This document shows positions 18,880 through 45,911 of a stretch of DNA of 64,000 nucleotides, piece by piece. Each line of letters starts with the position of its first letter. Positions within the stretch are counted from its first letter, which is position 1. Source of the DNA: a virus (Duplodnaviria > Caudoviricetes). Below the pieces are notes generated by a model. That model made no database searches and had not been told where the DNA came from. It was given only the letters and a program-made list of their open reading frames with translations. Where the stretch lies: the IMG/VR virus record IMGVR_UViG_3300032132_000748; one strand, 5' to 3'. Position numbers and translations under genes: made by a program.

Positions 18880-19188
18880 CTACGAAGCTGCTTGCTTCTT
18901 TCGTCTCATGGACCAGGCAAAACCTAAAAGGAAGAGTCCAATAAGCCATGTAGGGAAACCTTTGTATTTTTCAGAGAATAATGCGGCCTTCTTAGGGCCA
19001 GGAACAGTAGGTTTCTCGTCGTCATCGTCATCGTCATCGTCTTCAGCCTCAGCCTGTCCGAAGTAACCCCCTAAACCACCTAACCGAATATCGGTTCTTT
19101 GGGTGGGCGGTGATGATCCTCGTTTGCTATAAAGATCATTATAGATACCATCTTTAGAGTAAATTGATTTAAATAATCCTTTAGACAT
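18880..19188 (-). CDS. Tail-anchored membrane protein with poly-Asp
   Basis: LGGLGGYFGQ, poly-Asp tract, TM. Confidence 0.7.
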   Translation of the reverse strand: MSKGLFKSIYSKDGIYNDLYSKRGSSPPTQRTDIRLGGLGGYFGQAEAEDDDDDDDDEKPTVPGPKKAALFSEKYKGFPTWLIGLFLLGFAWSMRRKKQAAS

Positions 19189-19589
19189 TAGAGCCCCCTC
19201 AATGATCTTGCGGCAAAATACATCCTAAAAGTTGTCTGTGCTGCTCCGCCGTTAACATATACAACTCTAGCAAAAGGGGCCACTATTTGCACTTGTAATG
19301 CATTGTCTGTAATATTGCCCCCTGTGATAGCATGAGTTGATATTGTAGTGTGTGTTGTCGATAGTGCTCCTGAAGGAAAATCAGCAGGAGATAGTCCTTG
19401 TTCTATGATGATTCCATCAGGAGAAGCACTATCAACGTCTGAGAAGGCAAACCCTGATATGTGTGCGTAACCTGCTACAGTGATTACTTCTCCGAAGAAT
19501 GAGGCCCCTGCGCCGAGAATATCGGCATCAACGGCTGCGCCCACAATAAGTGTATCAATCTGAGAAAGGTGAACTTTATTACTACTCAT
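19188..19589 (-). CDS. Small beta-rich protein, putative minor capsid/vertex jelly-roll
   Basis: AAGGAG RBS; alternating beta pattern, APFARVVYVNG; fold is inference. Confidence 0.55.
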   Translation of the reverse strand: MSSNKVHLSQIDTLIVGAAVDADILGAGASFFGEVITVAGYAHISGFAFSDVDSASPDGIIIEQGLSPADFPSGALSTTHTTISTHAITGGNITDNALQVQIVAPFARVVYVNGGAAQTTFRMYFAARSLRGL

Positions 19590-19601
19590 TTATCTCCTTT
19601 A

Positions 19602-20342
19602 TTAGCGGTTACGGAATACATCGTCTAGTTCATCAATAGGGAACATATGACCAAATATTACTGCTTTAACTGCAATATCTCTTGCTGCAATTGCTGTTGT
19701 GGCAATGCAGTTTTTTACACTTACCTGAATCGGCGTATTTTCGTTAACTATAGCAAACATCTTTGTGTTGTTATCTAAAGAAGATATCATGCAGGGGAAG
19801 TTGCCATAGTTGAAAACGGGTGTCCCACCCGCTTGGACACTCCAGGCTATGTCGTCAGGAGAGCCGTCTGGTTTCTGGAATGCAGTGCTATCACCGATCC
19901 ACTGACCGAAGCTTGTAATAACCGCAGAAAAACCTGATGGGATGTCTAGCGTCCCACTAGACCCAGTTTGGGGTGATCCAGGTGATATAACTGTAGTTGC
20001 ATCAACAAATAGATCAACAAAAGTTGTGGGATCTGGAGGAAGCAGAGCAGAACCAAAAGCAAAGAATCGCTGGGAACGGAACGATTCAAAGTTTGCTCTT
20101 GGTAAGTAGTTGATAGCCGCAAAGCTAACCTGATTACCGCTTAGAGAGGGTGGTATCGGTTCAACGAAGGATCTATAAGATCCTCCAGATGTTTGATAAA
20201 CATCACCCTCAAATCCCGGTAAGAAAGTTCCATCGGGCAAGGATACTGGACCCATGCCACGAAGGTCCTCAGGGAGTTCTCCGAACTCCCCAAAGCCTGA
20301 AAAATCAGGTAACTCTCTTTCAGTAAATTCCCGATCTGCCAT
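19602..20342 (-). CDS. Putative single jelly-roll minor capsid protein with N-terminal G-tag
   Basis: FSGFGEFGE; IPSGFSAVITSF..IAWSV..GTPVFNY..AVIFGHMFP beta-sandwich pattern. Confidence 0.55.
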   Translation of the reverse strand: MADREFTERELPDFSGFGEFGELPEDLRGMGPVSLPDGTFLPGFEGDVYQTSGGSYRSFVEPIPPSLSGNQVSFAAINYLPRANFESFRSQRFFAFGSALLPPDPTTFVDLFVDATTVISPGSPQTGSSGTLDIPSGFSAVITSFGQWIGDSTAFQKPDGSPDDIAWSVQAGGTPVFNYGNFPCMISSLDNNTKMFAIVNENTPIQVSVKNCIATTAIAARDIAVKAVIFGHMFPIDELDDVFRNR

Positions 20343-20347
20343 AAAAA

Positions 20348-20956
20348 TTATCCAGTAGTGGTCTTAAGATCTTCAACGTGATAGACCTTATAACCGATCA
20401 GACCAAGACGAACTTCGTTAGAAGCAAGTGAGAGGTCAGTTAGTTCTATTGTTATTGTTGAAGCACGAGCAATAAAGCGTGGCTTCGGCAAAATTAGCGG
20501 TAGCTGTGCTGTTCCTGCACCGATATCGGAGTGAACAGCAATGTTTGACCACTGACGATCGTTGGACGAATCTCGAACCAGGAACGCAAAAGGGGCTGTA
20601 GCTACACGAACCAACTTAGTTAGATAGAAGTCGGCTTCACGGGTAATTGAGATCGTGGTTGTTGCTGTTCCGCCTGAAGCGAGAGTTATAGGACTAGTAG
20701 CGTAAATGAAATACTCATCGAAGTTACCAGATTCGATCTTTCTGATCTTTTCTGCTAGCTTGAAGTTATCTTTACGTAGTCTTTTATTTTCTTCCTGCAT
20801 AGATAGCAGAATTTCTTGTAGAGTTTGTAGGTTTAAGCTTCCGCCTGCAGCGGCACCGCCGCCTGCGTCTGCTTGACCGAAGCCATTACCACCACCATAT
20901 CCACTAAATTGTGGTTGCTGTGGTTGACCCCAGTTTCCAATATTATTGTAAGGCAT
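20348..20956 (-). CDS. Putative single jelly-roll capsid protein with N-terminal G-tag and coil
   Basis: FSGYGG, FGQ; YFIY..EADFYL..GTAQLPLILPKP..LIGYKVY beta-rich domain. Confidence 0.55.
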   Translation of the reverse strand: MPYNNIGNWGQPQQPQFSGYGGGNGFGQADAGGGAAAGGSLNLQTLQEILLSMQEENKRLRKDNFKLAEKIRKIESGNFDEYFIYATSPITLASGGTATTTISITREADFYLTKLVRVATAPFAFLVRDSSNDRQWSNIAVHSDIGAGTAQLPLILPKPRFIARASTITIELTDLSLASNEVRLGLIGYKVYHVEDLKTTTG

Positions 20957-23290: not shown

Positions 23291-24331
23291 TTAAAAGACA
23301 AGCACTTCACCCCAGCGGTGAAGATGCTTGTCTAACATATAATTGCTATTAATGTATTTCATTGCGTTCTTGATTAACTTCTCTCTGAGAGCCTCGTTCT
23401 CTATGAGAAGTGACAAACACGTAAACCATTCTTTTTCGTTTGAGGCTAAAAACCCATCCTCTCCGTGGTCTATATGCTTGTAGGGGCCATAGTTTGATCC
23501 TATAAAAGCCGCCTCCATCAAAGTCATCTGGCTGTATTTCAAATTAGATTTTGATGCGTTAAAAACATGTGGGCGAAGAGGTGCTATTGCGATATCTGCA
23601 TTTATATCTTGAATTGTGTTTAAGTAATCGCCAAAAGGAACTGCAGGGTGGCATATAGCTCCAGGTATGAGTTCTTGAAGAGTTTTCTCGTCTAAAGTGC
23701 TTTGAAGATGTATTTCAATCTTATCTCCATATTCATCACTTATTTTTTGAAGAGGGCCTTTTACAAGCTCCAAGTCTGGTAGATGACTTGAACTCCCAGT
23801 CCAGAGTATTCTAATTTTTTCATTCTTAGTTTTTGGGATATCCCGACGCATCTCGTCTGAGACACAGTTAGGGATTACTTTTATATTTTTATTCCATGTC
23901 TGATAAAGAGCTTTGAGTTCATTTGTCGTAACAATTACCATATCTGCAAGTTGTATGAACATTTGCACATAAATGCTTCTCATCTCTGGAGGAAAGCTAT
24001 ATGTCTCTCCGGTAGTTTTATCTATAATTTCAGTTTGCTCAGGAGAGTCCTCAGGAATATTGAGATAGTCGTCATCAAAATCGATGATAATTTTCTTTCC
24101 TTTTGCTTTCCAATCAGCATAGAACTGGTAAGCCGAAGGGGCATACAGGCACTGTATATAGAGTATCTCTGCCCACTCATACTGCTCTAGCTGATTTTCC
24201 TTTTCTCCGAGAAATTGGACAGGATGTCCTTGTTCCATCAGACTATACAGGGGTTGAATTACCCTGTGATAGGAAGTGGCGTTATTATCTAGGGGGACGC
24301 CTAGGACTCGACGTTTACTCTTAATTAGCAT
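23291..24331 (-). CDS. Glycosyltransferase, GT-B fold
   Basis: DFDD, WTGSSSH, DIAIAPL..FNASKSNLK. Confidence 0.85.
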   Translation of the reverse strand: MLIKSKRRVLGVPLDNNATSYHRVIQPLYSLMEQGHPVQFLGEKENQLEQYEWAEILYIQCLYAPSAYQFYADWKAKGKKIIIDFDDDYLNIPEDSPEQTEIIDKTTGETYSFPPEMRSIYVQMFIQLADMVIVTTNELKALYQTWNKNIKVIPNCVSDEMRRDIPKTKNEKIRILWTGSSSHLPDLELVKGPLQKISDEYGDKIEIHLQSTLDEKTLQELIPGAICHPAVPFGDYLNTIQDINADIAIAPLRPHVFNASKSNLKYSQMTLMEAAFIGSNYGPYKHIDHGEDGFLASNEKEWFTCLSLLIENEALREKLIKNAMKYINSNYMLDKHLHRWGEVLVF

Positions 24332-25237: not shown

Positions 25238-27406
25238 ATGGCAGTAAATTTCAATATTGGTGACACAATTATAGTCAACCAAACATACGTACAAAATATT
25301 TTAGCTCCAAGACCCTCCACTAATGAGAGAAAAGCCCTTCTTGAACACCTAGGTAGGCTAGGAGATAGCAGTTTACTCGTTAGTAAATTTTTTCCTGTCG
25401 TCCCTACGATGAGAGTTACAAAAATAGAGGATAACTCCTCTAAAGTTTTGAGTTTTGAGACTGAGAATGATTTGAACAGTTGCTTCACGTTTGTAAGTGA
25501 TTTTACCATGACTACAAACAAGGTTGTTAACGTTCAAAACGGGACAACTGGCGTAATTAAGAAAGGATCCTTTGTCTATCAAACCGGATTCATCGGGTCC
25601 AACCCACAGAAAGCAGTTATTGCTTCCCCGAAGGCCAACCAAATAGCTGGAGCCGCCATATTTGGTATTGCTATACAGGATATTTTTGCTGGTAGCACCG
25701 GAAACGTTTTAGTAGAAGGTACTTTTAAAGGATTAGACACTCGTGCCGCCAATACTCAGGCAGAGTGTTATGTAGGAGTAGAGGGCGGCCAAGCTGTCTC
25801 AATTCCTGGTGGAGACTTTCACAAGAAAGGAATAGTTATAGACGCAGCAAGAAATGGCACCGTTTTTCTCCCGCGCCAACCTTCCGGTCCCTATAACTGC
25901 TTCGAAGTAAGGCAGCTTGATGGTCTTTGTAATCATAAGGAAAATCATGATCAGGGTCTCGCAGGTCACACGTATCGTAGAGTAATACCAGCTAAATATG
26001 CAGATGGGAAATCAGTTCCTTTCGTAGCGGCTACCAGAACAAATCCTAGAAATATAAGTAATTTAATTTTTGATAAGGGTGCTGACAAGCCAAACCACTT
26101 AAATGCCACAGACTTTGTTTGGTTGTGGGGTCAATTCCTAGATCATGATATTGCCCTAACTAAAGATACTGCGGAATATTTTCCTATAGCTGTTCCTGCG
26201 GACGACACCGTCTTTACTCCCGGATCATCTTTGCCTTTTGTGAGATCGGAATTTGATTCTGATACAGGAACTACGAACGTCCGCCAACAAGTTAACCAAC
26301 AGAGTGCCTATATAGACGCGTCCAATGTTTATGGAGCTGATCCTGTTCGCGAAGCAGCTTTGCGAGCTAATGATGGTTCTGGTAAGCTTCGCACCAGCTC
26401 AGGAGATTTACTTCCTTTCAACACAACACTTCTTGATAACGCCCCAAATAATCACGACCCCCAATACTTCCTGGCAGGAGATATCAGAGCCAACGAACAT
26501 CTTTTGCTTACGGCCTTACACACTCTTTGGGTTAGGGAGCACAATCGTCTTGCTGTTGAAATAAAATCAGTTAACAGCCATTTAACCGGGGATCAGGTCT
26601 ATGAAGTGACTAGACGAAAGGTTACGGCCTTGATTCAAGCTATCACGTATAATGAATTTTTGCCAATTTTATTGGGCTCTGATGCTATTAGTAAGTATAC
26701 CGGATATGACTCAAGCACCAATCCGCAGATAATGAACTCATTTGCTACAGCATTCTATAGATTAGGACACGCCATGGTTTCTTCTACTCTACAGCGTCTA
26801 GATAGCAACTTAGCTAGAATTTCATTAGGACACTCTAAATTAAGTGATTCTTTCTTCCGCCCAGACAGATTAACTGAGGGCGGGGGTATGGAACCTCTAC
26901 TTCGAGGAGCATCGCAACAAGTATGTCAAGCAATCACCCCTGGGACTGCAAATGAGCTTAGGAATCTTCTCTTTGCCAGTTCAGGTACCGGCGGCCAAGA
27001 CTTAGCTGCAAGAAACATTCAACGAGGTAGAGATCACGGGCTACCGGACCTAAACACTTGTAGAAAAGCTCTTGGTTTGGATACTCACAGGTCGTTTAGC
27101 AGTATCACTTCGGATTCTACTATCAAAGCAAACCTAGCTCTTGCTTACTCTAGCCTTAATGGAATAGATGCATGGGTCGGTGCTTTGGCAGAAGATGTTG
27201 ATGATGCCGGTGGCTTGGTTGGTTCAACAATTAAAAGATCGTGTAAGCTTCAGTTTGAAGCTCTAAGAGACGGCGATCGTTTTTGGTATGAGTGTCTCTT
27301 TGCTGGTGATTTGCTTGCGGAAATTAACAATACTAAGTTGTCAGATGTTATTCGTAGAAACACCACTATCGGTAGTGAGCTACAAGATAATGTGTTCATT
27401 AAGTAA
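25238..27406 (+). CDS. Animal-type heme peroxidase (peroxidase-cyclooxygenase superfamily) fused to N-terminal module shared with the collagen
   Basis: WGQFLDHD, GDIRANE, AFYRLGH, NIQRGRDHG, LRDGDRFWY; residues 1-210 align with collagen N-terminus. Confidence 0.92.
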   Translation: MAVNFNIGDTIIVNQTYVQNILAPRPSTNERKALLEHLGRLGDSSLLVSKFFPVVPTMRVTKIEDNSSKVLSFETENDLNSCFTFVSDFTMTTNKVVNVQNGTTGVIKKGSFVYQTGFIGSNPQKAVIASPKANQIAGAAIFGIAIQDIFAGSTGNVLVEGTFKGLDTRAANTQAECYVGVEGGQAVSIPGGDFHKKGIVIDAARNGTVFLPRQPSGPYNCFEVRQLDGLCNHKENHDQGLAGHTYRRVIPAKYADGKSVPFVAATRTNPRNISNLIFDKGADKPNHLNATDFVWLWGQFLDHDIALTKDTAEYFPIAVPADDTVFTPGSSLPFVRSEFDSDTGTTNVRQQVNQQSAYIDASNVYGADPVREAALRANDGSGKLRTSSGDLLPFNTTLLDNAPNNHDPQYFLAGDIRANEHLLLTALHTLWVREHNRLAVEIKSVNSHLTGDQVYEVTRRKVTALIQAITYNEFLPILLGSDAISKYTGYDSSTNPQIMNSFATAFYRLGHAMVSSTLQRLDSNLARISLGHSKLSDSFFRPDRLTEGGGMEPLLRGASQQVCQAITPGTANELRNLLFASSGTGGQDLAARNIQRGRDHGLPDLNTCRKALGLDTHRSFSSITSDSTIKANLALAYSSLNGIDAWVGALAEDVDDAGGLVGSTIKRSCKLQFEALRDGDRFWYECLFAGDLLAEINNTKLSDVIRRNTTIGSELQDNVFIK

Positions 27407-27602
27407 TTTTTCTATTCTTTAAAGAACAGCATAGTTCATCTAACTTTTTACTTGTTGTATGTACAAACAAAAATGGCAATACTGCGTGAGTTATTGCCAT
27501 CAATCCCAATCCAATTAATTTGGTGCCACAACAAAAGGCAAAGCAAAAATGCTGAAAGTAGGTTTCATTAACAGAATTGGGGTGTTTAGTAAATGGATTC
27601 AT
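27399..27602 (-). CDS. Small membrane protein (DUF6356-like)
   Basis: NPFTKHP..VNETYFQHF..HAVLPFLF. Confidence 0.65.
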   Translation of the reverse strand: MNPFTKHPNSVNETYFQHFCFAFCCGTKLIGLGLMAITHAVLPFLFVHTTSKKLDELCCSLKNRKIT

Positions 27603-27627
27603 CTATAAATTATAGCAAAGACTTGCC

Positions 27628-28278
27628 TCACTCAAACCTAGCGCTACGTCTCCCATTCCAGTTTATGCCTTCGTCTTGCGGTCCAACAATAGGCATATGT
27701 ATAACCGTCAGGTTATCTAGGCAGGCTTGATCTTTAAACTGCAACGCAAAGGACACGTCACTCTCAGCAGCGTTATGGCTATCTTCTGGATATAACTGTC
27801 CTGTATGGAATATCTGAGTATACCCAATAGGAATAAAGTGATTAATTACAGAGTTTTCTAATCTAAAGTAAGAAGCCTTAAGTTTTTGCCATTTTTTTGT
27901 GTGGCCTGTAAGTAGGTATTTTTCCCATGCGGATTTTGATGGGCACATTAAGCGTGGGCATCCGTATATAGTATTCTTGTCTAAATTTTCTAAATCTTTT
28001 ATATTTTTAGGTAGTAAAATATCAGAATCGAAATGGCAAACCCATCCGTCTAGGCCCCTAAGGGCCTCATTTATGGCTTTGCCTTTATTAAACTCTGCTC
28101 CGCCTTCATAAAACTTATTAGTTAAAATAACGTCAACTTGGTTTTCCTGGCAAATATTTTGAGTTTTAATGTCATCTGGGCTTGTTACTACAATCAAATG
28201 ATCAAACAAAGGTTTGTTGTGAGGTAAACTAATCTTCAGATAATCATCATAATTAACACAAACAGTTATAGCTTTCAT
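27628..28278 (-). CDS. Glycosyltransferase, GT-A fold (GT2-like)
   Basis: ITVCVNYDD, FNKGKAIN, DSD motif. Confidence 0.8.
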   Translation of the reverse strand: MKAITVCVNYDDYLKISLPHNKPLFDHLIVVTSPDDIKTQNICQENQVDVILTNKFYEGGAEFNKGKAINEALRGLDGWVCHFDSDILLPKNIKDLENLDKNTIYGCPRLMCPSKSAWEKYLLTGHTKKWQKLKASYFRLENSVINHFIPIGYTQIFHTGQLYPEDSHNAAESDVSFALQFKDQACLDNLTVIHMPIVGPQDEGINWNGRRSARFE

Positions 28279-30164
28279 AGATTCCTATAAATACTAGAAT
28301 TTACAAAGCTGTCTAAGAAATACTCTTTAGTTAGCTTTTCTTTGATGCTACTTGATTCTAGATACTTATGTGCAGAATAAATTAGATCATTATTGTCTGC
28401 CTTGGCTCCCGCCTCTTCCAAGCTGTTAAAATACAGAGGGTAGTCTTCCCCCAAATATTCAACTACAGGGTCCAGACGATTCACCAACACCGGGGTATTT
28501 CTGACAATACACTCTATTATGGCATTATTAGCGCTACTATCTATCAGATCCAAGAAAACTACATTCTGTGATAATAGCTGATCATAATCATCATTAGGTT
28601 GAAAAGGAAGCTCCATTACACATGAAAGATCCGTTCCCGTAGGGATCTTTAAATGCGTAGTCATTAGATGTTGCCAAGGGTTGTTCGTATTAAGCGTGGC
28701 TCGTATAAGCTTGGTAGTTATCTGATGTAACGAAAAAGGTCTTCTAAGCCACCAACCTACTTGAACTAGTTTTTTATCCTTATTCGCAAGATATCTATCA
28801 AAATCAAATTTTACTTCGGGTTCTTCTGTTGGATGAAAAAGAGAGACGACTGGAAGATTCGGGTATATTTTTTTAAGATCTTTTTTATGATATTCTGACA
28901 AAGTGAATAGCCCTTTACAGTGACCTATACTAGCCTGCCAATCTTTTTGAGAAAATATTTGTTGGTTACTACTTTTTCCATCTCCAAACCAATCTGGCAT
29001 GTTGGGAGGATTGTGTATGAAACCTACCCAGGGTCCTCTAAAAGGAATCTTACCTGAGGATGACATAAACTCTCTGTTCCAAGAAAAACTGCTCTCAATA
29101 AATCCGTCAAGTAACACCCCTTCTCTGGAGTGTAAGCAATTAAACGCTCCCGTGGCGTAGCCCCATCCGGACCTATGATTGTTACTGGACCATTGAGGAC
29201 CAATGTGTATTTTTCCTGGGTAGCCCCTATCTCCGCCAAAAATAGCGTCCCTATCTAAGCATCCTAGGAGGTCTTCTAGGCACTCAAAGACTACATTAAT
29301 CCCTTTCCCTTTATTAAACTTACGATGTTTCGTATCAATAGGGACCAAATTAGCAAGAAACTCTCCTTTTGTGAAGTCGCCGGTAAGACAAACTTCTACT
29401 TCCTCACCTTGTATCATACTTATTACACTTATAGTAGCCCGTAACTGTCTTGAAGGGGGTCTCCTTTTCATTTCGCTTAAATAATCTTTACTTACTTTAA
29501 CTATGTTTCCCACTCGAATCAAAGGTCCATGTTTTGCCTCTAGAGCAGAATCTACACAAAGAGCATTATAGAAACAATTAATTTTATCTATAAATACAAC
29601 TTTTTGTCCGTGTTGTTTGAAGATATCTTGTATGAAAAGACCATCCGCAGCATAATTATGGAGGCTCCATCTTCTTGGCCCTATCTGATAATTAGAAACA
29701 ACATATTGTGCGGAATCTATAGATCCCGGCTTAGTAAATTTAGCCCCTATATTTCTTCTTTGATCTTCCGAATCTAGCTGACTACATATGATGGATTTAT
29801 CATATTTGTGATCTTTGAATACCTTGTTTACCATAGGTAGGCAGTTATGATGTAGTAAGTTATCATCGTCTAAAAAGTAGACAAAACCTTCCGTTATTTG
29901 ATCTAAAGCATGATTTCTCTGGGCATTACCTACAATACTTTTCTTGTTAGCTATAAGATCAGTAATTATGTTTATATAGGCTTTGTAAGGTTGCAAACTC
30001 TCTACCGTAAGTTCATAGATTTCGGCCTCTACTACTGAGCCATCAAACATGATGTACCAATCAACATCAAAAGGGAGTCCGTTACTGTGATTTTTAATAG
30101 ACTTAGCTACTGCGCTAAGGTTATCGGGGCGGCTGCATGGAGTTACAATACTCAAGCGAATCAT
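28275..30164 (-). CDS. Multidomain glycosyltransferase: GT2 domain, shared ~90-aa domain, second GT-like domain
   Basis: IVTPCSR, YFLDDDN, ADG; C-terminal HRSGW..LIDSSANNAIIEC..EYLGEDYPL. Confidence 0.8.
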   Translation of the reverse strand: MIRLSIVTPCSRPDNLSAVAKSIKNHSNGLPFDVDWYIMFDGSVVEAEIYELTVESLQPYKAYINIITDLIANKKSIVGNAQRNHALDQITEGFVYFLDDDNLLHHNCLPMVNKVFKDHKYDKSIICSQLDSEDQRRNIGAKFTKPGSIDSAQYVVSNYQIGPRRWSLHNYAADGLFIQDIFKQHGQKVVFIDKINCFYNALCVDSALEAKHGPLIRVGNIVKVSKDYLSEMKRRPPSRQLRATISVISMIQGEEVEVCLTGDFTKGEFLANLVPIDTKHRKFNKGKGINVVFECLEDLLGCLDRDAIFGGDRGYPGKIHIGPQWSSNNHRSGWGYATGAFNCLHSREGVLLDGFIESSFSWNREFMSSSGKIPFRGPWVGFIHNPPNMPDWFGDGKSSNQQIFSQKDWQASIGHCKGLFTLSEYHKKDLKKIYPNLPVVSLFHPTEEPEVKFDFDRYLANKDKKLVQVGWWLRRPFSLHQITTKLIRATLNTNNPWQHLMTTHLKIPTGTDLSCVMELPFQPNDDYDQLLSQNVVFLDLIDSSANNAIIECIVRNTPVLVNRLDPVVEYLGEDYPLYFNSLEEAGAKADNNDLIYSAHKYLESSSIKEKLTKEYFLDSFVNSSIYRNL

Positions 30165-30247
30165 TCATTCAGTATAGCACCTCATTCACATCCCGTAAAG
30201 TCAAGACTATTTGGGGAAGCAGTAGACTCATGATAGAATTAGTAGTA

Positions 30248-30628
30248 ATGACCTTTGCACCGCGAAAATTTACTACCAAATCCGGCAAATCTATTCTGGT
30301 AGGCCGAAATAGCCGAGAAAACAACTACCTAACCTTGAAGATAGCTAAGCCGGAGGATCTTTTCTTTCACGCTACGGATTTTGCAGGCTCTCACGTTATC
30401 CTACAACTAGACAAAGATGAGTTTGTTAGCAGAGTTGATCTAGAAGAAGCTGCTCTATATGCGGCTTATTACTCCAAAGGAAAGGGTAAAAAACAAGTGA
30501 AAGTTGACTACACATATAAGAAATATGTAACTAAACCGAGGAAAGCTCCTGCGGGTTTGGTTGAGATAGAGAAATTTAAAACGATAAAAGTAACTAAAGA
30601 ACAGATGTCTACGCTGGTGTTGGGGTAG
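30248..30628 (+). CDS. NFACT-R (DUF814) RNA-binding domain protein
   Basis: VGRNSRENNYLT, DLFFH..GSHV, AAYYSK, VDYT..VTKP..PAGLV; probable start 30248. Confidence 0.85.
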   Translation: MTFAPRKFTTKSGKSILVGRNSRENNYLTLKIAKPEDLFFHATDFAGSHVILQLDKDEFVSRVDLEEAALYAAYYSKGKGKKQVKVDYTYKKYVTKPRKAPAGLVEIEKFKTIKVTKEQMSTLVLG

Positions 30629-30634
30629 CTTTAC

Positions 30635-30669
30635 AAAAAAATAGGGTAGCCCCGAAAGACTACCCTATT
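30635..30669 (-). terminator. Intrinsic terminator of dnaK
   Basis: AATAGGGTAG/CTACCCTATT hairpin with T-run on minus strand. Confidence 0.75.
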
Positions 30670-30697
30670 CCCGAAAGGAGGCCCTATGGGCCTTGTT

Positions 30698-32596
30698 TTA
30701 TTCTTCGCTTTCTTCACTAACTACGTCGGCTTCAATGACGTCATCATCAGCAACTGTCTCTTCAGTGGTTTCTGATTCGGAATTTGCTTGCTCAGCGTTT
30801 GCATACAGCTCTTGGGCAATTTCATGTTGTAGCGTCATTAATGAGTTACAAGCGTCTTCAATTGCTTCCATCGAATCCCCATCTCGTGCTTCCTTAAGCC
30901 GTTCTAGTAAAGATTTAATCTCTTCATCACGGCCCAGTAGTTGCTCAGGGGCTTCTTCGATTTGCTGTTCAACAGTATCAATTACTTGATCAGCCTTGTT
31001 TTTTGACTCAACAAAAGCAACGCGCTGTGCATCTTCTTCTGCATATTGCTCAGCTTCTTCCTTCATTCTCTTGATGTCGTCGTCTGAGAACCCAGTATTG
31101 GCTTCGATTGTAATGTGCTGCTCTCGTCCCGTTCCTAGATCCTTAGCTGATACATTTAAGATACCATCAGGGTTAATATCAAAAGCCACTTCAATCTTTG
31201 GGATCCCTTTAGGGGCAGGCGGAATTTGGTCCAACCGGAACACACCAAGAAGTCTGTTATCCTCTGCCATCTTTCTCTCACCCTGATAAACTTTAACATC
31301 TACGGCTGTTTGATTGTGACTAAAGGTAGTGAAGGTCTCTTTTTTGCCAGAAGGGATAGTGGTATTTCTGTCAATCATTACTGTCATGACACCACCTGCG
31401 GTTTCAACACCTAACGATAGGGGAGTTACATCCAATAAGAGCATATCAGTTTTATCTCCAGATAAAACTGCGCCCTGGACTGCAGCACCCATAGCAACGA
31501 CTTCGTCCGGGTTAACGGACTTATTTAGGTCCTTGCCACCAAAAAACTCCTTAACAGCATCTTGGACAGCAGGAATTCGCGTTGATCCACCGACCATGAT
31601 AATTTCGTCGATATCGGTGATGCTATACTTTGCATCCTTTAAGGCTTTCTCTAGTGGAATTTTAGTTCTGTCAATCAAGCTCTTAGTTAGAGAATCAAAT
31701 TTGGCTCTCGTAACATCGACTTCCAGGTGTAGTGGGTGTCCTCCATCTCCTTGAGTGACAAAAGGCAGGTTTACCTTAGTTGACTTTGAGTTGGATAACT
31801 CACATTTTGCTTTTTCGCAAGCTTCCTTAAGTCTTTGGAGGGCTAACTTATCCTTTCGGAGATCTATTCCACCGGAAGATTTCTTAAACTCATCCGCAAC
31901 AAAATCAATAAGAACCTGGTCAAAGTTATCGCCGCCAAGATGTGTGTCACCGTTAGTTGACTTAACCTCAACAATTCCATCACCAACCTCTAGGACTGAA
32001 ACATCGAAAGTTCCTCCACCAAGGTCGAAGACAATAATTTTTTGATCAACAATTTTATCTAACCCATATGCAAGAGCAGCGGCAGTCGGCTCATTGATAA
32101 TACGGCGAACAGTTAGTCCTGCGATTTCTCCCGCATCTTTTGTAGCTTGGCGCTGTGAGTCGTTGAAATAGGCAGGAACAGTAATAACTGCTTCTGTTAC
32201 TTCTGCCCCTAGGTGCTCCTCTGCGTAGCTCTTAAGGTATGCGAGGGTCATAGCAGAAATTTCTGGGGGGCTAAATTGTTTGTCTCGGATCTGAACCTTA
32301 ACAGGGCTTTTTCCGGTTCCTACTAATTTGTATGGAACTTGTTGTTCTTCTTCTGCGACCTCATCTCTACGACGACCCATGAAACGTTTAATTGAGTAAA
32401 CGGTATTTTCAGGATTGGTAACTGCCTGGTTTCTGGCTCGTTGTCCAACCAGACGCTCACCATCCTCTTTAAAACCAACTACTGAAGGAGTAGTTCTCGC
32501 ACCCGAAGTATTTTCAATTATTTTGACTTCGCTGCCTTCCATGACGGAAACTACGGAGTTCGTAGTTCCCAAATCTATTCCAATTATTTTACCCAT
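30698..32596 (-). CDS. dnaK: Hsp70 chaperone DnaK
   Basis: [44 protein letters not shown]; ATG 32596 after GAGG. Confidence 0.97.
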
Positions 32597-32668
32597 AGTT
32601 ATCCTCAAACGGTTTAGTTACTTATAAAATAGGCGATTAGTAGTATTGGCGCAAGCTTTAGACATCAA

Positions 32669-33412
32669 TTAAATAAGTTCTTTGCTCTTCAAAACTCTCA
32701 TTATTTTAGCCACACTTTCTTTGACCGTCTCTTCGTCCGTCCTGCAGATAAGATCCGGTGTTTCGGGTTTCTCATAGGGATCGTCTACCCCCGTGAAACC
32801 TTTAATCTCTCCCGCATAAGCTTTTGCATACATACCTTTAACATCACGTTTTGCACAAACTTCAACTGGTGCATCTACAAAGACTTCAATATGATTATTA
32901 ACACAACTCTTAACGAAAGCTCTTGCCTTTCTGTATGGTGATACAAAGGAGCATATAGTAATAGCTTTTTGGGATAAATATGAAGATATTCTAGTTATTC
33001 TTTGAATATTTTCATTCCTGTCTTCTGCGGTGAACCCAAGGCTCCAGTTAGGTAGCTTTCTAACCACATCTCCGTCTAAATACTCAACTCGTTTAAGTTG
33101 TTTCTCTAGCTGACTCTTAAGCTCTACCGCAATAGTGGTCTTACCAGAACATGGTAAACCTGTAAGCCATACTGTACAGCCTTCTTTTTCCTCTAGATTT
33201 CTTCCAAATTTTATTTTCTTCCAAACTGATTCATGGAAGTAATAAACGATAGATTTAAATACACCATCACCTAACGCGGCTAAGGATAATAATCCTACGG
33301 CTATGGCTGCCTCTTTAGTTACTATCATAAGAGTAATTAAAGTAATAAAAACAGCAATGACTCTCCAAGATACTGTTTTGGCGATGGTTCTAGTTTCTGT
33401 GTCTTTTATCAT
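32669..33412 (-). CDS. cysC: Adenylyl-sulfate kinase fused to N-terminal DUF2061-like membrane domain
   Basis: WLTGLPCSGKTT, LDGDVVR, RDVKGMY, FTGVDDPYE; N-terminal KTVSWRV..YYFHESVW. Confidence 0.9.
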   Translation of the reverse strand: MIKDTETRTIAKTVSWRVIAVFITLITLMIVTKEAAIAVGLLSLAALGDGVFKSIVYYFHESVWKKIKFGRNLEEKEGCTVWLTGLPCSGKTTIAVELKSQLEKQLKRVEYLDGDVVRKLPNWSLGFTAEDRNENIQRITRISSYLSQKAITICSFVSPYRKARAFVKSCVNNHIEVFVDAPVEVCAKRDVKGMYAKAYAGEIKGFTGVDDPYEKPETPDLICRTDEETVKESVAKIMRVLKSKELI

Positions 33413-33832
33413 TTATTTACCTGAAAATTTTTCTTCCAATTGTTTTTCAACGCCGGGCATAACTACATCACGCCATCCGTCCTCTCCTGCTCGAATTTGA
33501 CGGCGTATTTCTGTAGCACTTATTCTTTTAATATGCTCTGGAGCAGCGCCCTCGTGACATACAACAGCATATCCAACACCTCTTCCATAGTTTATGGAAG
33601 CTATGTCTGGGATAATCTGAAGAGCCACAAGTCCTGCATCGATCTCATCTTTAAAGGCCGCCCCCAGCATAGATTCGACCTCTGCTGCAGTGAAGGGGTT
33701 ATTTTCATCAGTAGGTACGTCCCGTATCATAATCAACACTGGTTCGTCTTTATCCAGGTGCTGATCAATAATAAATCTGTGGCCTTTGTGGGGACTCTGC
33801 CATCTCCCGATATACGCGTTATACTTTGTCAT
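33413..33832 (-). CDS. HxGH nucleotidyltransferase (cytidylyltransferase-like)
   Basis: GRWQSPHKGH, NPF, YGRGVGY, ISATEIR. Confidence 0.85.
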   Translation of the reverse strand: MTKYNAYIGRWQSPHKGHRFIIDQHLDKDEPVLIMIRDVPTDENNPFTAAEVESMLGAAFKDEIDAGLVALQIIPDIASINYGRGVGYAVVCHEGAAPEHIKRISATEIRRQIRAGEDGWRDVVMPGVEKQLEEKFSGK

Positions 33833-33904
33833 AATTCCTCCCTACTAGTGTAAAATAGAAAATTTAGATTCACAGGTCTAAACACAAATTGTTATAATTA
33901 GGCT

Positions 33905-34384
33905 ATGAGTTACGAGAAATTAGAGCAGCAGGGAAGGGGCAGCCGAGAAGCTGTAAAATTCTTGCCTAAAAATATGCAAGATGACTTGGTTTCCCGTCAA
34001 GGTGAAACTGAAGTAGAAAAATACCCGATGGAATCCGTCAGTCCTTCAACAGAATCTAACTGGAAAGAAGGAGCTAAACTAAAGAAAAAGGCTATCCACT
34101 CTACTGATCTAACACATCAGGACTTAATGTCTCGTCTAAGATCAGCTCAAATAACTGCTGTTCAGGGTGACATAACAAGTGAATTTGGAGACGCAGCCAC
34201 TAACGCAATCTACGCTAAAGCAGGTGTTGCTGCTATAAGCTCATTGATAACAGGAAAGCCTCCTGCCCAACAAGAACAAGAACGCCAACAACAAGCTGAA
34301 GCTAAGAAAAAACAAGTTCCCATGATGCTTATCGGTGGCGGTCTTATTTTAGTTTTACTTTCTTATATACTATTTATTAAGTAA
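33905..34384 (+). CDS. Tail-anchored membrane protein
   Basis: EFGD, Q-rich linker, C-terminal TM; leaderless-type promoter. Confidence 0.7.
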   Translation: MSYEKLEQQGRGSREAVKFLPKNMQDDLVSRQGETEVEKYPMESVSPSTESNWKEGAKLKKKAIHSTDLTHQDLMSRLRSAQITAVQGDITSEFGDAATNAIYAKAGVAAISSLITGKPPAQQEQERQQQAEAKKKQVPMMLIGGGLILVLLSYILFIK

Positions 34385-34441
34385 ACCACCATTGCTACTT
34401 AAACTCTAAATGATACCCTCTATTCTTCGGAGGGTATTTTT

Positions 34442-35191
34442 ATGGCCTATCGCACTTTGGAACAAGAAAACTCATTCGCTAGATCGGGAGATTTTGCAGT
34501 AGGTGACGGGACGGCGTCTTTGTATTACGACACGGCATCTTCACACGCCGCAGGAGCAATAACTATTAGTGGTGGTTGTGGGGCTGGTAGTGGTTCTGGT
34601 GGGGCAGTCTCTATAACTGCAGGCCAGTCAAGCTACTCAAGCTACTCTCGCGGAGCAAGAGCAATCACGCCCCTTACGCGGCTCTATCAACCTATTTACG
34701 ATAAGCAGGAAGTTTCTTCTGAAAGTTGGGCGCGATCCAATGTAAGAAAAATTGAGTTCTTTCAAAATCCAGTAATTAAGTCTTGGAAAGAAGAGGTTCA
34801 GGTTCGTGGTTCGAACGGACGATTTGCAAATAAAAAGATTCTTTCTCATCCCCAGCAAAGAACTTATGCAGATACTAATATGGAACATTCTGGTTATTTG
34901 GATCAAAGTTACAGAGTGACTGGCCTAGGCTTAATGACCCCCTCTTCTGCCAAAAAAGCTAATGTTTTGGATTTTGCTGAAAAATCATTTCTGTGTTTTG
35001 GTGTAGCAGGAAAAGAATACCTTCGACTTCCGGTTGTTATGCTCTTATCGGAAGCTGGCCCAGCTTACACCTTTGTAGACGCTATAGATATAAACCCTTC
35101 GGAACAATTTCAAGTGTACATAGAATCGAAGGGACTTAACTTATCAAGCCCCTTCGATATTCGATGCGTTTTAAGCGGTTACTACGATTAG
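34442..35191 (+). CDS. Diverged paralog of the putative major capsid protein with Gly/Ser-rich N-terminal extension
   Basis: QPIYD, FFQNP, TNMEHSG, GKEYL, IDINPSEQF, LSGYY match QPLYD, FFQVP, TNMDQGG, TKDYL, IDLIPQQNF, LDGFF. Confidence 0.7.
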   Translation: MAYRTLEQENSFARSGDFAVGDGTASLYYDTASSHAAGAITISGGCGAGSGSGGAVSITAGQSSYSSYSRGARAITPLTRLYQPIYDKQEVSSESWARSNVRKIEFFQNPVIKSWKEEVQVRGSNGRFANKKILSHPQQRTYADTNMEHSGYLDQSYRVTGLGLMTPSSAKKANVLDFAEKSFLCFGVAGKEYLRLPVVMLLSEAGPAYTFVDAIDINPSEQFQVYIESKGLNLSSPFDIRCVLSGYYD

Positions 35192-37059
35192 AACTCGTAG
35201 CCGATAACGTCAGCAGAGAATATACCTGTATTTCCAGCCATTCCAGTAACACCAAGTGTTAGGGTGGCACCTGCAGTTCCTACAACAGCTTTAGCACTTG
35301 AACTGAAGGTCCATAGATCATCTGCTGCTGTGACTCCTGTTGTTACTGTAGGAGCAAACACGTTACTTGTAGGTGCTGCACCGAATCCGGCAGCCGCAGT
35401 TGTGGCTGTTGTAATACCATCTGCGGTTGTTAGACGCAAGACAACTTCTGTAATTACTGCACTGGTTCCGCCAGGAACGTTATAGAGGAATATTTGAGTA
35501 GCTCCTAGGACTGCGTCGATATCGTCAACAGTTGCTAGGACTCCAACACCACCGGCAGCACCGATTCCTGTTACTCCTTGATCACCAGTAATACCAGTTG
35601 CTCCAGTTGCGGCTGGCGCACCCAGAATACCTGTTAATCCTTGGATACCAGTATCACCGTCAACGCCAGTTGTACCACTCATTCCAGTAATACCTTCGAA
35701 TCCAGTATTACCTTGGACACCGGTATCACCCATCATTCCGCCAGGACCTTGAATACCTGTCGCGCCAAGAATGGCAACTCCAGTATCACCTTGTTCGCCT
35801 TGAATACCCGTATCACCAACTACGCCGGTGACGCCGTCAGCACCAAGACCTGTATCACCTTGGACACCCGCACCAGTATTACCAGTTAATCCTAGGATAC
35901 CTGTATCACCTTGGGTTCCAACAACACCTGTGTCACCTTGAACGCCAACACCTGTATCACCAGTTAATCCGATAATACCTGTATCTCCTTGTGTTCCTTG
36001 TAGCCCCGCAACACCAGTATCACCTTGAATACCAACAACACCAGTATCACCTTGTGTTCCTTGTAGCCCTGCAACACCAGTATCTCCCTGAGCGCCTACA
36101 ACGCCGGTATCGCCTTGTGTTCCTTGAATGCCTTGAAGTCCAGTTACGCCTTGGGTTCCTACGCCTGTATCACCAGTCACACCGATAATACCAGTATCAC
36201 CAACTAAACCAGTAATACCTTGAGAGCCGGGAGCACCTGATGAACCTGGGGTTCCTTCAAGACCAGTTGTTCCTTCGAGACCAGTAACACCTTGACCACC
36301 GTCTACGCCGGTGCAACCTTTAATACCCGTATCACCTTGAGGGCCAGCTAATCCGGTTGTTCCTTGTGAACCGCCACCGCCGCCACTACCAAAAGGTTGG
36401 TTACCGCTAACGCTAATAGATCCACTTGTTCCTGTGGACTCAACAAGTCCTACAGGAACACTTACTGAACCGGCACTGCTGGTGGGATTAATCATACCAG
36501 GGGTGTCTGATAGGAAAGCTGTCTCACCAATGGTCATTGTTCCTACGTCAATTACAACAGATCCGCTGATAACACAGCTACCACACTCACCATCGTCTAG
36601 AGCTTCTTCGAGGATTCCAAAAGCTAACGCAGTAGGGGAGGCCGCAGCGCTGGCTAGATCGACAGTGGCGAGCTGTTGTGCTGTGTCATAGCCGGTGTTA
36701 TAGACAACACTACCTTTAGGTAGTGTGCTTCCAGTGCTGTTTAAGACTTTAATGCATTTATAGTCGCAAAGGAAGGCGTTTGATAGTTCGAATGAGTTAT
36801 TTAACTCTTCGTCAGTATCAAAATATACAATTGTTCCTCGTCCGGTTTTGTACCCCGGAACGGTTGTATCCGCAGGGAGGATTTTAATATAACTTAAATT
36901 TCCTATAGCTCCTACTGCGGTTACTGTTCCAGTCCCTGATCCTAAAGAACCGAGACTCGCGGCAGCGACTTTTCCAGTCCTACCTTGTTGTTTAAGCGTA
37001 ATACCTACGTATGAAGATACTACTCTCACTACATCGTTTACTGAAAAGTTTATGGCCAT
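35188..37059 (-). CDS. Collagen-like fibre protein (shared N-module, ~270-aa interrupted Gly-X-Y, C-terminal beta domain)
   Basis: GDT/GVT/GxQ triplets at about 35560-36363; C-terminal LYNVPGGTSAVITEV..VIGYEF. Confidence 0.9.
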   Translation of the reverse strand: MAINFSVNDVVRVVSSYVGITLKQQGRTGKVAAASLGSLGSGTGTVTAVGAIGNLSYIKILPADTTVPGYKTGRGTIVYFDTDEELNNSFELSNAFLCDYKCIKVLNSTGSTLPKGSVVYNTGYDTAQQLATVDLASAAASPTALAFGILEEALDDGECGSCVISGSVVIDVGTMTIGETAFLSDTPGMINPTSSAGSVSVPVGLVESTGTSGSISVSGNQPFGSGGGGGSQGTTGLAGPQGDTGIKGCTGVDGGQGVTGLEGTTGLEGTPGSSGAPGSQGITGLVGDTGIIGVTGDTGVGTQGVTGLQGIQGTQGDTGVVGAQGDTGVAGLQGTQGDTGVVGIQGDTGVAGLQGTQGDTGIIGLTGDTGVGVQGDTGVVGTQGDTGILGLTGNTGAGVQGDTGLGADGVTGVVGDTGIQGEQGDTGVAILGATGIQGPGGMMGDTGVQGNTGFEGITGMSGTTGVDGDTGIQGLTGILGAPAATGATGITGDQGVTGIGAAGGVGVLATVDDIDAVLGATQIFLYNVPGGTSAVITEVVLRLTTADGITTATTAAAGFGAAPTSNVFAPTVTTGVTAADDLWTFSSSAKAVVGTAGATLTLGVTGMAGNTGIFSADVIGYEF

Positions 37060-38602: not shown

Positions 38603-39325
38603 TTAGAAAAATGCACAGCAAAGTAAATAGCGAACACCACCTGTCGTTGGTAATCCTATATGCTCGTGCGAGACCCCTCCTGGCCACATTGCAGCTTGCC
38701 CTGGTTTGGCAGGCTGCATTCTAAACTTCCATCGAGGGAAATAGGTCCCACCTCCGGCATAATCAGTATTTAGATATACAACCATAGCAACAGTCTCTAA
38801 ATCATAATGTAAGTTCATTTTATTTACTTTATCTGGCTCGTATTTTAGTAGATAGGGTTGATCATACCTCTCAACACTAAAAGATTTCCATAATTTATCT
38901 ATCAGAGGAGCCACATGTTTTTTATTTGTTTCTTGTATTGTCTTAGTGAGAGATTTCGTTTTTGTGCTAGGGAAGCTTTTGAGAGACAGCGTTGTGTCTT
39001 TTTCATTTTCGACTCTGCTACTTTCTAGAAGTTTTGAATCAATCTTCATCATTCCGAGACCAGATTCGTTATCCACTCCGGTTTCCCAGCCTCCTTGAAA
39101 CTCTGCTTCTTCTATTAGTTTTCTACAAAATTCAGGGGTGAATAGTTCAAATGTATATATTTGTTCAGCCGCCTCCACTACTTTGGCTTTTCTTGCCTGG
39201 GCTGATTTCACTAAGTGTTTTTCACTGTATTGATAGATATCCGGATGTAGTACTTTCGGGGCAGCGAGCTTTTCCTGCTGACCAAACCAATAATCGCCTA
39301 ATCCATATAAGTTTCCCGGTCTCAT
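38603..39325 (-). CDS. 2OG-Fe(II) dioxygenase, PLOD lysyl-hydroxylase-like domain
   Basis: FTPEFCRKLIEEAE, HYD, GGGTYF, WPGGVSHEHIGLPTTGGVRY; N-terminal LYGLGDYWFGQ tag. Confidence 0.85.
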   Translation of the reverse strand: MRPGNLYGLGDYWFGQQEKLAAPKVLHPDIYQYSEKHLVKSAQARKAKVVEAAEQIYTFELFTPEFCRKLIEEAEFQGGWETGVDNESGLGMMKIDSKLLESSRVENEKDTTLSLKSFPSTKTKSLTKTIQETNKKHVAPLIDKLWKSFSVERYDQPYLLKYEPDKVNKMNLHYDLETVAMVVYLNTDYAGGGTYFPRWKFRMQPAKPGQAAMWPGGVSHEHIGLPTTGGVRYLLCCAFF

Positions 39326-39361
39326 ATCGCTATTTTAACATTCCAAACGACGGAAATCAAA

Positions 39362-40123
39362 TTATCTAGCATGTTGAGGCTCACCTTCTTCCCAAACTGA
39401 AACGGAATCTCCGTTTAAGACCTTATCATAGATAGCGTGGAGTATTAGATACCGCCTACCTTTGGTTATTTTTTTTCCACGATGAAGGTGGCTTAGACCT
39501 CCAGGGTAAAGTAGTATAACTCCGGGCTTGGCGTGAACCGTTACGTTGAATTTAGGAAAATGTGTTCCGCCTCCGACAAACTCATCATTTAAACCTAATA
39601 TACAGGCTAAGGGCTCCCCGTCGTAGTGATCATCCATCTTTTCCTGCCCGTCTTTTCCTGCTACATACCTTAATATGTAGACCTCATCATGATGGGTAGG
39701 GCTAAAGGTTGGAAACAATTTACTTGCGCAGGGGAAGACGTATTTCTTAATTGCATCGGAATATTTTTTCTGGAGTTCTGACATAAAATCTAAGGATAAA
39801 GTCATACCTACGCTTTCACCGCCACCTTTAGAAGCATTACCCCAAGTTCCATATTTTTCGGACACCCTAACTAAGGCATCGCACCACTCTTTATCGAAAA
39901 GCTTAACTGCATAGATTTGGCATGTTTTTGGTCCCATCTCCTTGGCGCGATGCTTTTTAGCATCAGGGTGTATATGATTCTCAATATCTAAAAGAATTTT
40001 CACGTCGGGATCTGAAAAGTCTCCCAAAGCTTTGGGAGACTTTTTTCGAAATTTTTTCCACGTCATATATGCGATTATTGCAGATAAAAACCCAATTCCG
40101 AATTTAATGTGAGGATTATTCAT
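39362..40123 (-). CDS. 2OG-Fe(II) dioxygenase, PLOD-like, N-terminal TM
   Basis: FDKEWCDALV, HYD, GGGTHF, YPGGLSHLHRGKKITKGRRY; TM then LGDF. Confidence 0.85.
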   Translation of the reverse strand: MNNPHIKFGIGFLSAIIAYMTWKKFRKKSPKALGDFSDPDVKILLDIENHIHPDAKKHRAKEMGPKTCQIYAVKLFDKEWCDALVRVSEKYGTWGNASKGGGESVGMTLSLDFMSELQKKYSDAIKKYVFPCASKLFPTFSPTHHDEVYILRYVAGKDGQEKMDDHYDGEPLACILGLNDEFVGGGTHFPKFNVTVHAKPGVILLYPGGLSHLHRGKKITKGRRYLILHAIYDKVLNGDSVSVWEEGEPQHAR

Positions 40124-43576: not shown

Positions 43577-44134
43577 CTAGTGGACCTCGCGCTTGAAGAA
43601 ACCGTCGAGGTAAACACTAAGTGCTACTGTGGCGGACAAAGTCTGAGGTGTTGGAAGGTTTACTTCACAACGGAAGTTTTGCTGTGGGATCAAGTCAATG
43701 GGCTCGGCCAAGACGTAGATACCACGTTGGTCAGGACGACCGTTGGTTACTGAAACAACGTCAGTAGAACCAGCGGCAACACCGTCAAGACCGACACCAG
43801 CGGTCAACATGAAAAGGTTGACAACTAGATAGTCCTTAGTTCCGATGAAAAGACGGAACCAAGCGTTGTTGAAGATAGCGTTGAGGTCGGCAACAGCACT
43901 GTCGTACTGGTTGATTAAACGGATTGCGTGAATCTCAAAGTTCTTCGGGTATGGCAGGCTTCCACCCTGGTCCATATTGGTTTGAACTTGTGTCTTAGGT
44001 AGCACGCCACCTGGGGTAGTTCCACCGAGTGGAACCTGGAAGAAGTTCAATTGTGAAGTACCACTTGTAGCGACGGTGTTACGGTCGTATAGTGGTTGTT
44101 GGATGCGTTCTAGCAATCCTGGAATACGAGGCAT
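43577..44134 (-). CDS. Putative single jelly-roll major capsid protein A
   Basis: 185 aa beta-rich, AAGGAG RBS, tandem paralog, end of promoter/terminator-bounded operon; fold is inference. Confidence 0.65.
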   Translation of the reverse strand: MPRIPGLLERIQQPLYDRNTVATSGTSQLNFFQVPLGGTTPGGVLPKTQVQTNMDQGGSLPYPKNFEIHAIRLINQYDSAVADLNAIFNNAWFRLFIGTKDYLVVNLFMLTAGVGLDGVAAGSTDVVSVTNGRPDQRGIYVLAEPIDLIPQQNFRCEVNLPTPQTLSATVALSVYLDGFFKREVH

Positions 44135-44248
44135 ATGTATTCTCCTTTTTTTTACTTTTATTTACTTGTTTATGCCGCTCACTCCGAAGAGTGAGCTCAT
44201 AAACCCTTTTACTTCTTATTTACAAACAACGTCTGTAAATAAATCCAA

Positions 44249-44818
44249 TTAGTGGACCTCACGTTTGAAGAATCCATCCAAGTATACACTTAGATCGACG
44301 CTTGCAGTTAGAGGAGCACCAGCAGCAAATGGCGTTGGGAAATTAATTTCGCAACGGAAGTTCTGCTGAGGAATCAAGTCAATTGGCTCGGCCAATACAT
44401 AGATTCCACGTTGGTCTGGACGACCGTTAACAACTGAAACAACGTCGGTTGTTCCTGCTGCTACACCGTCAAGTCCAACTCCAGCAGTAAGCATGAAGGA
44501 GTTAACAACTAGATAGTCCTTAGTTCCGATAAAGAGACGGAACCATGAGCTGTCATAAATGCGGTTAAGGTCTGCAACCTCAGCACCGTATTCGTTGATT
44601 AGACGGATAGCATGAATCTCGAAGTTCTTCGGGTAAGGAAGACTTCCTCCTTGATCCATGTTTGTTTGTACCTGCGTTTTAGCAGTTACTGATCCAGCTG
44701 CGGCTCCACCAAGTGGGACTTGGAAGTAATTTAGCTGGCCGGTGCCGCTCGTTGCAACCGTGTTACGGTCGTAGAGAGGCTGTTGAATGCGTTCTAGCAA
44801 TCCTGGAATACGAGGCAT
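44249..44818 (-). CDS. Putative single jelly-roll major capsid protein B
   Basis: 189 aa, about 85% identical to protein A by manual alignment. Confidence 0.65.
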   Translation of the reverse strand: MPRIPGLLERIQQPLYDRNTVATSGTGQLNYFQVPLGGAAAGSVTAKTQVQTNMDQGGSLPYPKNFEIHAIRLINEYGAEVADLNRIYDSSWFRLFIGTKDYLVVNSFMLTAGVGLDGVAAGTTDVVSVVNGRPDQRGIYVLAEPIDLIPQQNFRCEINFPTPFAAGAPLTASVDLSVYLDGFFKREVH

Positions 44819-45895: not shown

Positions 45896-45911
45896 TGTTG
45901 TTTTCTCCAAT

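Follow-up and report, generated by a model that had tools for sequence, protein, structure and literature searches.

A two-domain N-terminal module common to a collagen-like fibre and a heme peroxidase is a candidate virion-surface anchor in a very large virus

The viral DNA analysed here, a stretch of 64,000 nucleotides from IMG/VR record IMGVR_UViG_3300032132_000748 (hereafter the window), is contained in an 859-kb metagenome contig (ENA ERZ27248692, k141_839137) and encodes many small unknown proteins together with DnaK, an APS kinase and a superoxide dismutase. Three of its genes concern us: a collagen-like fibre gene (35188–37059, minus strand), a heme peroxidase gene (25238–27406, plus strand) and a glycosyltransferase (GT) gene (28275–30164, minus strand) whose product has three modules. 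A preliminary description had linked the three products through a single unnamed domain, and the genes and the motifs it quoted are present at these coordinates. In a phmmer comparison among the 351 open reading frames (ORFs) of the window, the N-termini of collagen and peroxidase match one another with an E value of 6e-10 over ~165 amino acids, and ~210 N-terminal residues are common to both. These residues comprise two domains, which we call A and B. In the collagen protein, A occupies residues 1–96 (36772–37059) and B residues 97–218 (36406–36771), followed by a Gly-X-Y stalk of about 91 triplets (35569–36372) and a C-terminal head (residues 498–623; 35188–35568), all on the minus strand. 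In the peroxidase, A (residues 1–86; 25238–25495) and B (residues 94–212; 25517–25873) precede the catalytic domain (25904–27406) on the plus strand, and these three domains account for all 722 amino acids of the protein. The GT carries a diverged A (residues 216–304; 29253–29519, minus strand) and no B.

The relationship between the collagen and peroxidase N-termini extends over both domains. Pairwise comparison gave a local score of 70 for A (shuffle mean 24) and of 74 for B, and none of 3000 shuffles did as well in either case. For the GT segment the pairwise evidence is marginal: against collagen A it scored 46, a value reached by two of 3000 shuffles of the segment and by four of 2000 shuffles of the whole GT, and direct comparison with peroxidase A gave no signal. 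We gathered 563 relatives of the collagen N-terminus and built a domain A profile from 69 fibre-side sequences, including neither the peroxidase nor the GT. Among the window ORFs this profile matched collagen with 109 bits, the peroxidase with 36.6 and the GT with 33.3 (E 9e-10, residues 218–299, about 29268–29513), the next-best ORF scoring 6.9 and the best of 4000 shuffled GT sequences 4.7 bits. The profile alignment that the preliminary description had suggested for the GT segment likewise found it (hhalign probability 94.9%, E 4.5e-8, residues 216–303). Taken together, the profile, shuffle and hhalign tests show that the three segments are homologous, as had been claimed. The same profile and shuffle tests rule out that the GT copy is a mere generic SH3 look-alike.

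A structural model of collagen residues 1–225 (pLDDT, the predicted local distance difference test score, 93) comprises two domains. Domain A is modelled as an SH3-like barrel with inserted helices, and the peroxidase copy is likewise predicted to be such a barrel with helical inserts. Its structural matches are middling and tied: PsaE, KOW, Tudor, R67 DHFR and L21e at Z 5–6 with 55–77 residues aligned, and SH3_3 look-alikes at template modelling (TM) scores of 0.50–0.54. The predicted barrel topology of domain A recalls small beta-barrels such as PsaE, KOW, Tudor and SH3b, from which A differs in its helical inserts and in having no match to Pfam or PDB sequences; no Pfam family is common to its members. 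The SH3-like resemblance of the model appears to be generic and offers no functional pointer. Domain B is more telling. Its model (pLDDT 93) superimposes on the decoration protein of HFTV1 (8qsy_JI) with Z 13.0 and a root-mean-square deviation (rmsd) of 2.7 over 115 residues (Foldseek E 1e-4), on FCWL1, T1 and Pam3 proteins with Z 11–12, and on the head-fibre base gp8.5 of phi29 (6qyy) with Z 8.7; nearly all the top structural matches are capsid-associated or beta-tulip proteins of tailed viruses. Phage_cement_2 (PF09956) is matched by 26 of 72 homologs at E ≤ 0.01, and one homolog (P0047) passes the cut-off of that family. For the peroxidase copy of B the corresponding values are E 0.007 for Phage_cement_2 (17.2 bits, under the cut-off of 24), E 0.014 for phrog_122 (head decoration) and 65.5 bits for our B profile. 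The model therefore assigns B to the beta-tulip plus mixed alpha/beta subdomain fold of the capsid-decoration type. Hence only part of the linking element is unnamed, namely A, which is without a Pfam or PDB sequence family, and since B has capsid-binding relatives while the matches of A are generic, we place the functional clue in B.

The beta-tulip domain of phi29 gp8.5 forms a trimeric base that contacts the capsid and bears a spike (PMC7602432). Domain B has the fold of this protein and of other beta-tulip decoration proteins (lambda gpD; the HFTV1 protein; the Pam3, T1 and FCWL1 cement proteins; PF09956), with Z values of 8.7–13 in our comparisons, and likewise stands at the base of a trimer-forming stalk. 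Unlike these proteins, it is preceded by an SH3-like domain, its cargo is freely swapped, a 500-residue enzyme included, and there are several paralogs per genome.

The swapping of cargo is evident from a census of 103 distinct copies of A, in 98 of which A immediately precedes B. Behind these 98 A+B modules we found collagen (32), peroxidase (8), other cargo (42, including YadA-type heads, a beta-propeller and a K1-lyase C-terminal domain), or nothing or a fragment (16). Of the partners that the preliminary description wished to see listed, fibres and the peroxidase do recur; many cargoes, however, are not collagen, and the GT fusion occurs once. The five copies of A that lack B are three short fragment-like pieces, the GT copy and a stand-alone A of 109 amino acids (23–26 bits) at locus L009 (14051–14380), situated between a GT4-like gene and an A+B collagen of 1578 amino acids; apart from the GT copy, this is the only intact-looking A without B. 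A search with A alone and a scan with A motifs returned only A+B proteins or their fragments. The contig of the window encodes a fourth A-bearing protein ~190 kb away (L010:10001–12889; about 406.6–409.5 kb), a non-collagen A+B fibre of 962 amino acids with weak matches to YadA heads and to a beta-roll, and in L013 three A+B fibres lie in tandem. Given the constancy of A before B, the variety of cargo, the paralogs within one contig and this tandem array, A+B shows the pattern of an anchor that is used again and again with different cargo. A+B proteins of about 240 amino acids without cargo lie in L012 (8791–10732) and L046 (8761–10723), each in a co-oriented run of three genes, the other two of which encode small unknown proteins; such a run may form a simple decoration or vertex module. 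The neighbours of the 962-residue fibre gene encode a tRNA synthetase, PspA, Clp_N, a flavoprotein/DFP (CoaBC-like) protein and an ion-channel-like protein. Two large contigs carry a broken or rearranged A+B gene (L047/L048:9828–10430) with pieces on both strands, an inversion or an assembly artefact.

We think it probable that A+B is a virion-surface anchor of a family of very large uncultured prokaryotic viruses and that, in this one, it holds a lactoperoxidase-like enzyme on the outside of the capsid. Going by its fold and by the layout of the proteins, B would trimerise and sit on the capsid surface like the base of phi29 gp8.5, and trimer formation is implied by the collagen and YadA-type stalks that are fused to it. 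Domain A would be a family-specific SH3-like add-on that probably adapts B to this particular capsid or braces the trimer, as suggested by the conservation of its N-terminus and by its constant place in front of B. In keeping with a head-fibre design, whatever follows A+B, be it the heme peroxidase, a stalk of collagen or another fibre such as a YadA-like one, would be displayed outward. The likely binding partner is a pair of tandem candidate major capsid proteins (43577–44818, minus strand; 89–93% identical in L041 and L045) that look single-jelly-roll-like, although the model, made for one of the two, is of low confidence (pLDDT 61; best match the SPV1 capsid, Z 7.3, rmsd 4.0, 141 residues aligned). 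The preliminary description had also offered the idea that the shared domain mounts all three proteins on the same virion site. For collagen and peroxidase, which have both A and B, our reading agrees with this; it does not for the GT, which has no B and retains 7 of the 26 conserved fibre positions of A. The design of the head-fibre base is known, and what is new here is that a beta-tulip base is joined to a novel SH3-like domain, a probable adaptor, and that its cargoes include an enzyme. If the reading is right, A+B is a natural and repeatedly used display platform, and a beta-tulip fold typical of HK97 capsids may here sit on a jelly-roll capsid.

Several points weigh against this reading. 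The census was seeded with an A+B query and is biased towards A+B. The solved beta-tulip relatives that we found belong to capsids of the HK97 type or to appendages of the tail, whereas the candidate capsid proteins of this virus look jelly-roll-like, if only by a weak model, and beta-tulip-like domains also occur inside tail fibres. Finally, A and B of the peroxidase are more diverged from the fibre consensus (A in the peroxidases retains 12–16 of the 26 conserved positions) and may bind elsewhere. An alternative is that A+B anchors its cargo to a structure other than the capsid (a tail-like part, or a membrane or virus-factory scaffold within the infected cell), or that the peroxidase is free inside the cell and merely trimerised by A+B. 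Besides the tail fibres, the phi29 appendage has a beta-tulip-like domain, tail or HK97 genes could lie outside the ~87 kb of the 859-kb contig that our analysis covered, and other large viruses encode such peroxidases without an anchor. Yet a module at the N-terminus, with a Gly-rich linker and then a trimeric stalk behind it, is the layout of a head fibre, and the stand-alone A+B proteins match a simple decoration protein in size and organisation; we hold this alternative to be very improbable.

The peroxidase itself is intact and of the animal type. Its catalytic domain matches An_peroxidase over the full profile (positions 1–530 of 530; 469 bits, above the cut-off; E 2.5e-140), and the best solved matches are CyanoPOX (8S6C, E 4e-130) and Dictyostelium peroxinectin A (6ERC, E 1e-76). 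In alignment with CyanoPOX the distal Gln, His and Arg, the proximal His and Asn and the heme-linking Asp and Glu are kept, as are calcium-adjacent residues, and Q299, D302, H303, D304, R417, E420, R508, H511, N593 and R596 are invariant in seven homologs. On this evidence the enzyme is a complete, lactoperoxidase-like member of the peroxidase-cyclooxygenase superfamily, for which heme binding and halide oxidation are predicted. CyanoPOX ends in a PEP-CTERM motif; the viral enzyme, by contrast, has no cellular sorting signal and is fused to a decoration module, a fusion that no paper found in our literature searches describes.

The anchor of the peroxidase is as well conserved as its catalytic domain. 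Compared with L001, the closest relative, identity is 71% for A, 76% for B and 71% for the catalytic domain, with nonsynonymous differences (pN) of 0.15–0.21 (0.165 for domain A) and saturated synonymous differences (pS); the anchor is thus under purifying selection. The eight A+B peroxidases fall on one side of a branch (88/93) and seven viral peroxidases without A+B on the other, a pattern compatible with one fusion event. Viral contigs with related heme peroxidases that lack A+B (L022–L031) include several labelled as giant-virus bins.

Most likely the enzyme would act at the virion surface, using hydrogen peroxide (H2O2) to oxidise halides or small aromatics as bacterial lactoperoxidases do. 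Its effect would be to shield the particle against peroxide or to change the surface of the host, although this purpose is a guess. As a rule, the enzymes carried by virions are hydrolases or lyases and sit at the tips of fibres. If confirmed, a conserved redox enzyme of the lactoperoxidase type on a decoration base would give the particle a peroxide or halide chemistry of its own outside the cell. A different role is conceivable, in which the A+B-mounted peroxidase cross-links virion proteins during maturation (for instance through dityrosine in the capsid or fibre heads) and so hardens the particle, the GT being incidental. The complete active site and the selection on the anchor fit such a role, and in animals there are members of the same superfamily that cross-link structural proteins (PMC5377774). 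The window also has a gene for an Fe/Mn superoxide dismutase (11356–11961), a possible partner in oxidative protection that could supply H2O2 as well. Against cross-linking, three of nine relatives lack the gene at this locus, as one would expect of an accessory function more than of a step in maturation. Tyr is missing from the collagen helix, and CyanoPOX, the closest enzyme to have been characterised, works best on iodide and accepts small aromatics as further substrates (PMC11776367). We consider cross-linking in maturation unlikely, and a surface enzyme acting on halides or small aromatics remains our preferred role.

The preliminary description had gone further and cast collagen, peroxidase and GT as a fibre-building and modifying system, A being an address or docking tag that brings the GT and the peroxidase to the collagen fibre for glycosylation of Thr and for cross-linking. 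The homology of A in all three proteins is what such a tag would require. The genes, however, do not travel together as a conserved unit. Nine related loci cover the neighbourhood (the window, L001, L004, L005, L007, L009, L041, L043 and L045). Collagen and peroxidase occur together in six of them (the window, L001, L004, L005, L009 and L041), a point in favour of the tag, while L007, L043 and L045 have the collagen gene and no peroxidase gene in its customary place, although these genomes may carry one at another position. The GT with domain A, together with its GT2 neighbour, occurs in the window only, and in L001 (71–76% identical) the genes that flank this cassette are adjacent to each other. 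The GT that is conserved at the locus is a GT4-like gene (23291–24331) without domain A. Many A+B proteins, besides, are not collagens. A conserved fibre-modifying unit is not supported by these loci, nor is the A-bearing GT as a conserved partner of the fibre.

Nor does the fibre look like a substrate for cross-linking of the peroxidasin kind. Peroxidasin forms a sulfilimine between Met and hydroxylysine of collagen IV NC1 domains; it carries LRR, Ig and VWC domains, and its Ig domains are required (PMC5377774). The viral enzyme belongs to the same superfamily and is encoded near a collagen gene, but Pfam and profile scans of the full protein found no LRR, Ig or VWC domain. The collagen head (126 amino acids, 83% identical in L001) has no Pfam match even at E 10 and no NC1 match in this sequence-level test, hence no evident Met-hydroxylysine pair, and, in contrast to the peroxidasin and collagen IV system, the two viral genes do not always occur as a pair. 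With a single Lys and no Tyr, the helix would offer little substrate for sulfilimine or dityrosine chemistry. Peroxidasin-type cross-linking, which the preliminary description had invoked, is accordingly an unlikely fate for this collagen as far as the two protein sequences indicate.

Glycosylation is another matter. Glycosylated collagens of the BclA type are Thr-rich at the Y position of the triplet. In the viral stalk Thr occupies 36 of the 91 Y positions (Gln a further 20), so O-glycosylation of the stalk is plausible, with nothing that ties it to the A-bearing GT; BclA3 provides a studied case of such glycosylation (PMC7157674). The fibre resembles SPP1 gp12 and BclA-type collagens in its Thr- and Gln-rich, Pro-poor Gly-X-Y stalk between an N-terminal anchor and a C-terminal head, and differs from them in being anchored by A+B and in having a head without a family match. 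Two paralogous 2-oxoglutarate (2OG)-Fe(II) oxygenases (38603–40123; also in L001) are encoded near this collagen, which is almost without Lys and Pro. The Thr-rich stalk, the GT4-like gene and these oxygenases nearby are consistent with a modified fibre to which A is the address. The rarity of the A-bearing GT and its absence from L001, the divergence of its A, the peroxidase-less loci, the missing accessory and NC1 domains, the Lys- and Tyr-poor helix and the many non-collagen cargoes all speak against a docking tag, and we judge it highly unlikely that A serves as one.

The A-bearing GT repays a closer look. Its N-terminal GT2-like (GT-A) module (residues 1–205; 29550–30164) has a DxD-type motif and matches Glycos_transf_2 at the gathering cut-off (E 7e-5), and its C-terminal GT-B/GT4-like module (residues 314–629; 28275–29225) has weak matches to GT4 and SenB and is widespread and mobile. 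Its neighbour, the small GT2-like gene (27628–28278, minus strand; Glyco_tranf_2_4, E 0.001), absent at this site in L001, completes the lineage-specific two-gene cassette. Homologs of the C-terminal module mostly begin to match at residues 310–330. Domain A therefore lies between two separate GT modules, the second of which starts at about residue 314, and an insertion of A within one GT domain is ruled out. None of the 55 loci with such homologs (bacterial and viral, alone or in varied fusions) has a domain A. The family to which this GT-B-like module belongs is well conserved in bacteria, cyanobacteria and large viruses and has no Pfam model.

Neither the conserved motif at the N-terminus nor N87, which is almost invariant, is retained in the GT copy of A. 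This copy is 17% identical to the A of this genome's collagen and 17–20% identical to the other A copies of the genome, and sits on a branch of length 1.95 with unreliable tree placement; its low identity and long branch rule out a recent duplication of the collagen or peroxidase A of the same genome. It is nevertheless an open, full-length putative barrel with a recognisable substrate-side loop motif and so does not seem to have decayed beyond use. A search of a structure atlas with a single-sequence model of the segment returned no match above TM 0.5. We found no other fusion of a GT with A in a regional protein search, in scans of viruses and metagenomes, in phages or at the 55 C-domain loci, searches of limited sensitivity to diverged copies. 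The best reading of these sequences is a one-off fusion, a GT2 + A + GT-B chimera of one lineage in which a stray A may now serve as a linker or weak tether.

Concerning the wider setting, relatives lie on contigs of 243, 313, 369 and 712 kb. Neither A nor A+B had a match in the GTDB genomes and INPHARED phages searched, A was not found in the IMG/VR searches made here, and no paper on these viruses turned up in our searches of the literature. The module marks an apparently undescribed group of very large viruses with contigs of 240–860 kb, and we read the element studied here as a prokaryotic virus of very large size that may lack a tail. The candidates for its capsid invite comparison with the tailless single-jelly-roll viruses (SPV1, HHIV-2 and P23-77 types), of which they resemble SPV1 in the low-confidence model; should this resemblance hold, the length of the contig would make this an extremely large tailless prokaryotic virus. 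One may imagine that a giant tailless bacterial virus borrowed the beta-tulip fold of tailed phages and added an SH3-like adaptor, A being a sorting tag by which fibres, a peroxidase that cross-links or halogenates and, in certain lineages, a GT come to lie at the same virion sites and form a chemically modified coat that functions like an extracellular matrix. We attach little probability to this scenario as a whole.

Beyond the tandem pair at 43577–44818, beta-rich capsid-like genes lie at 34442–35191 and 19188–20956. Genes at 13911–14888, 17074–17916, 44942–45910 and 49987–50712 encode a transglutaminase-like protein, basic proteins in which RR-N-P motifs recur, and numerous small proteins marked by a hydrophobic helix at the C-terminus and by Gly-Leu-Gly-like motifs. 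This set of proteins suggests parts of a protease-processed, membrane-containing virion.

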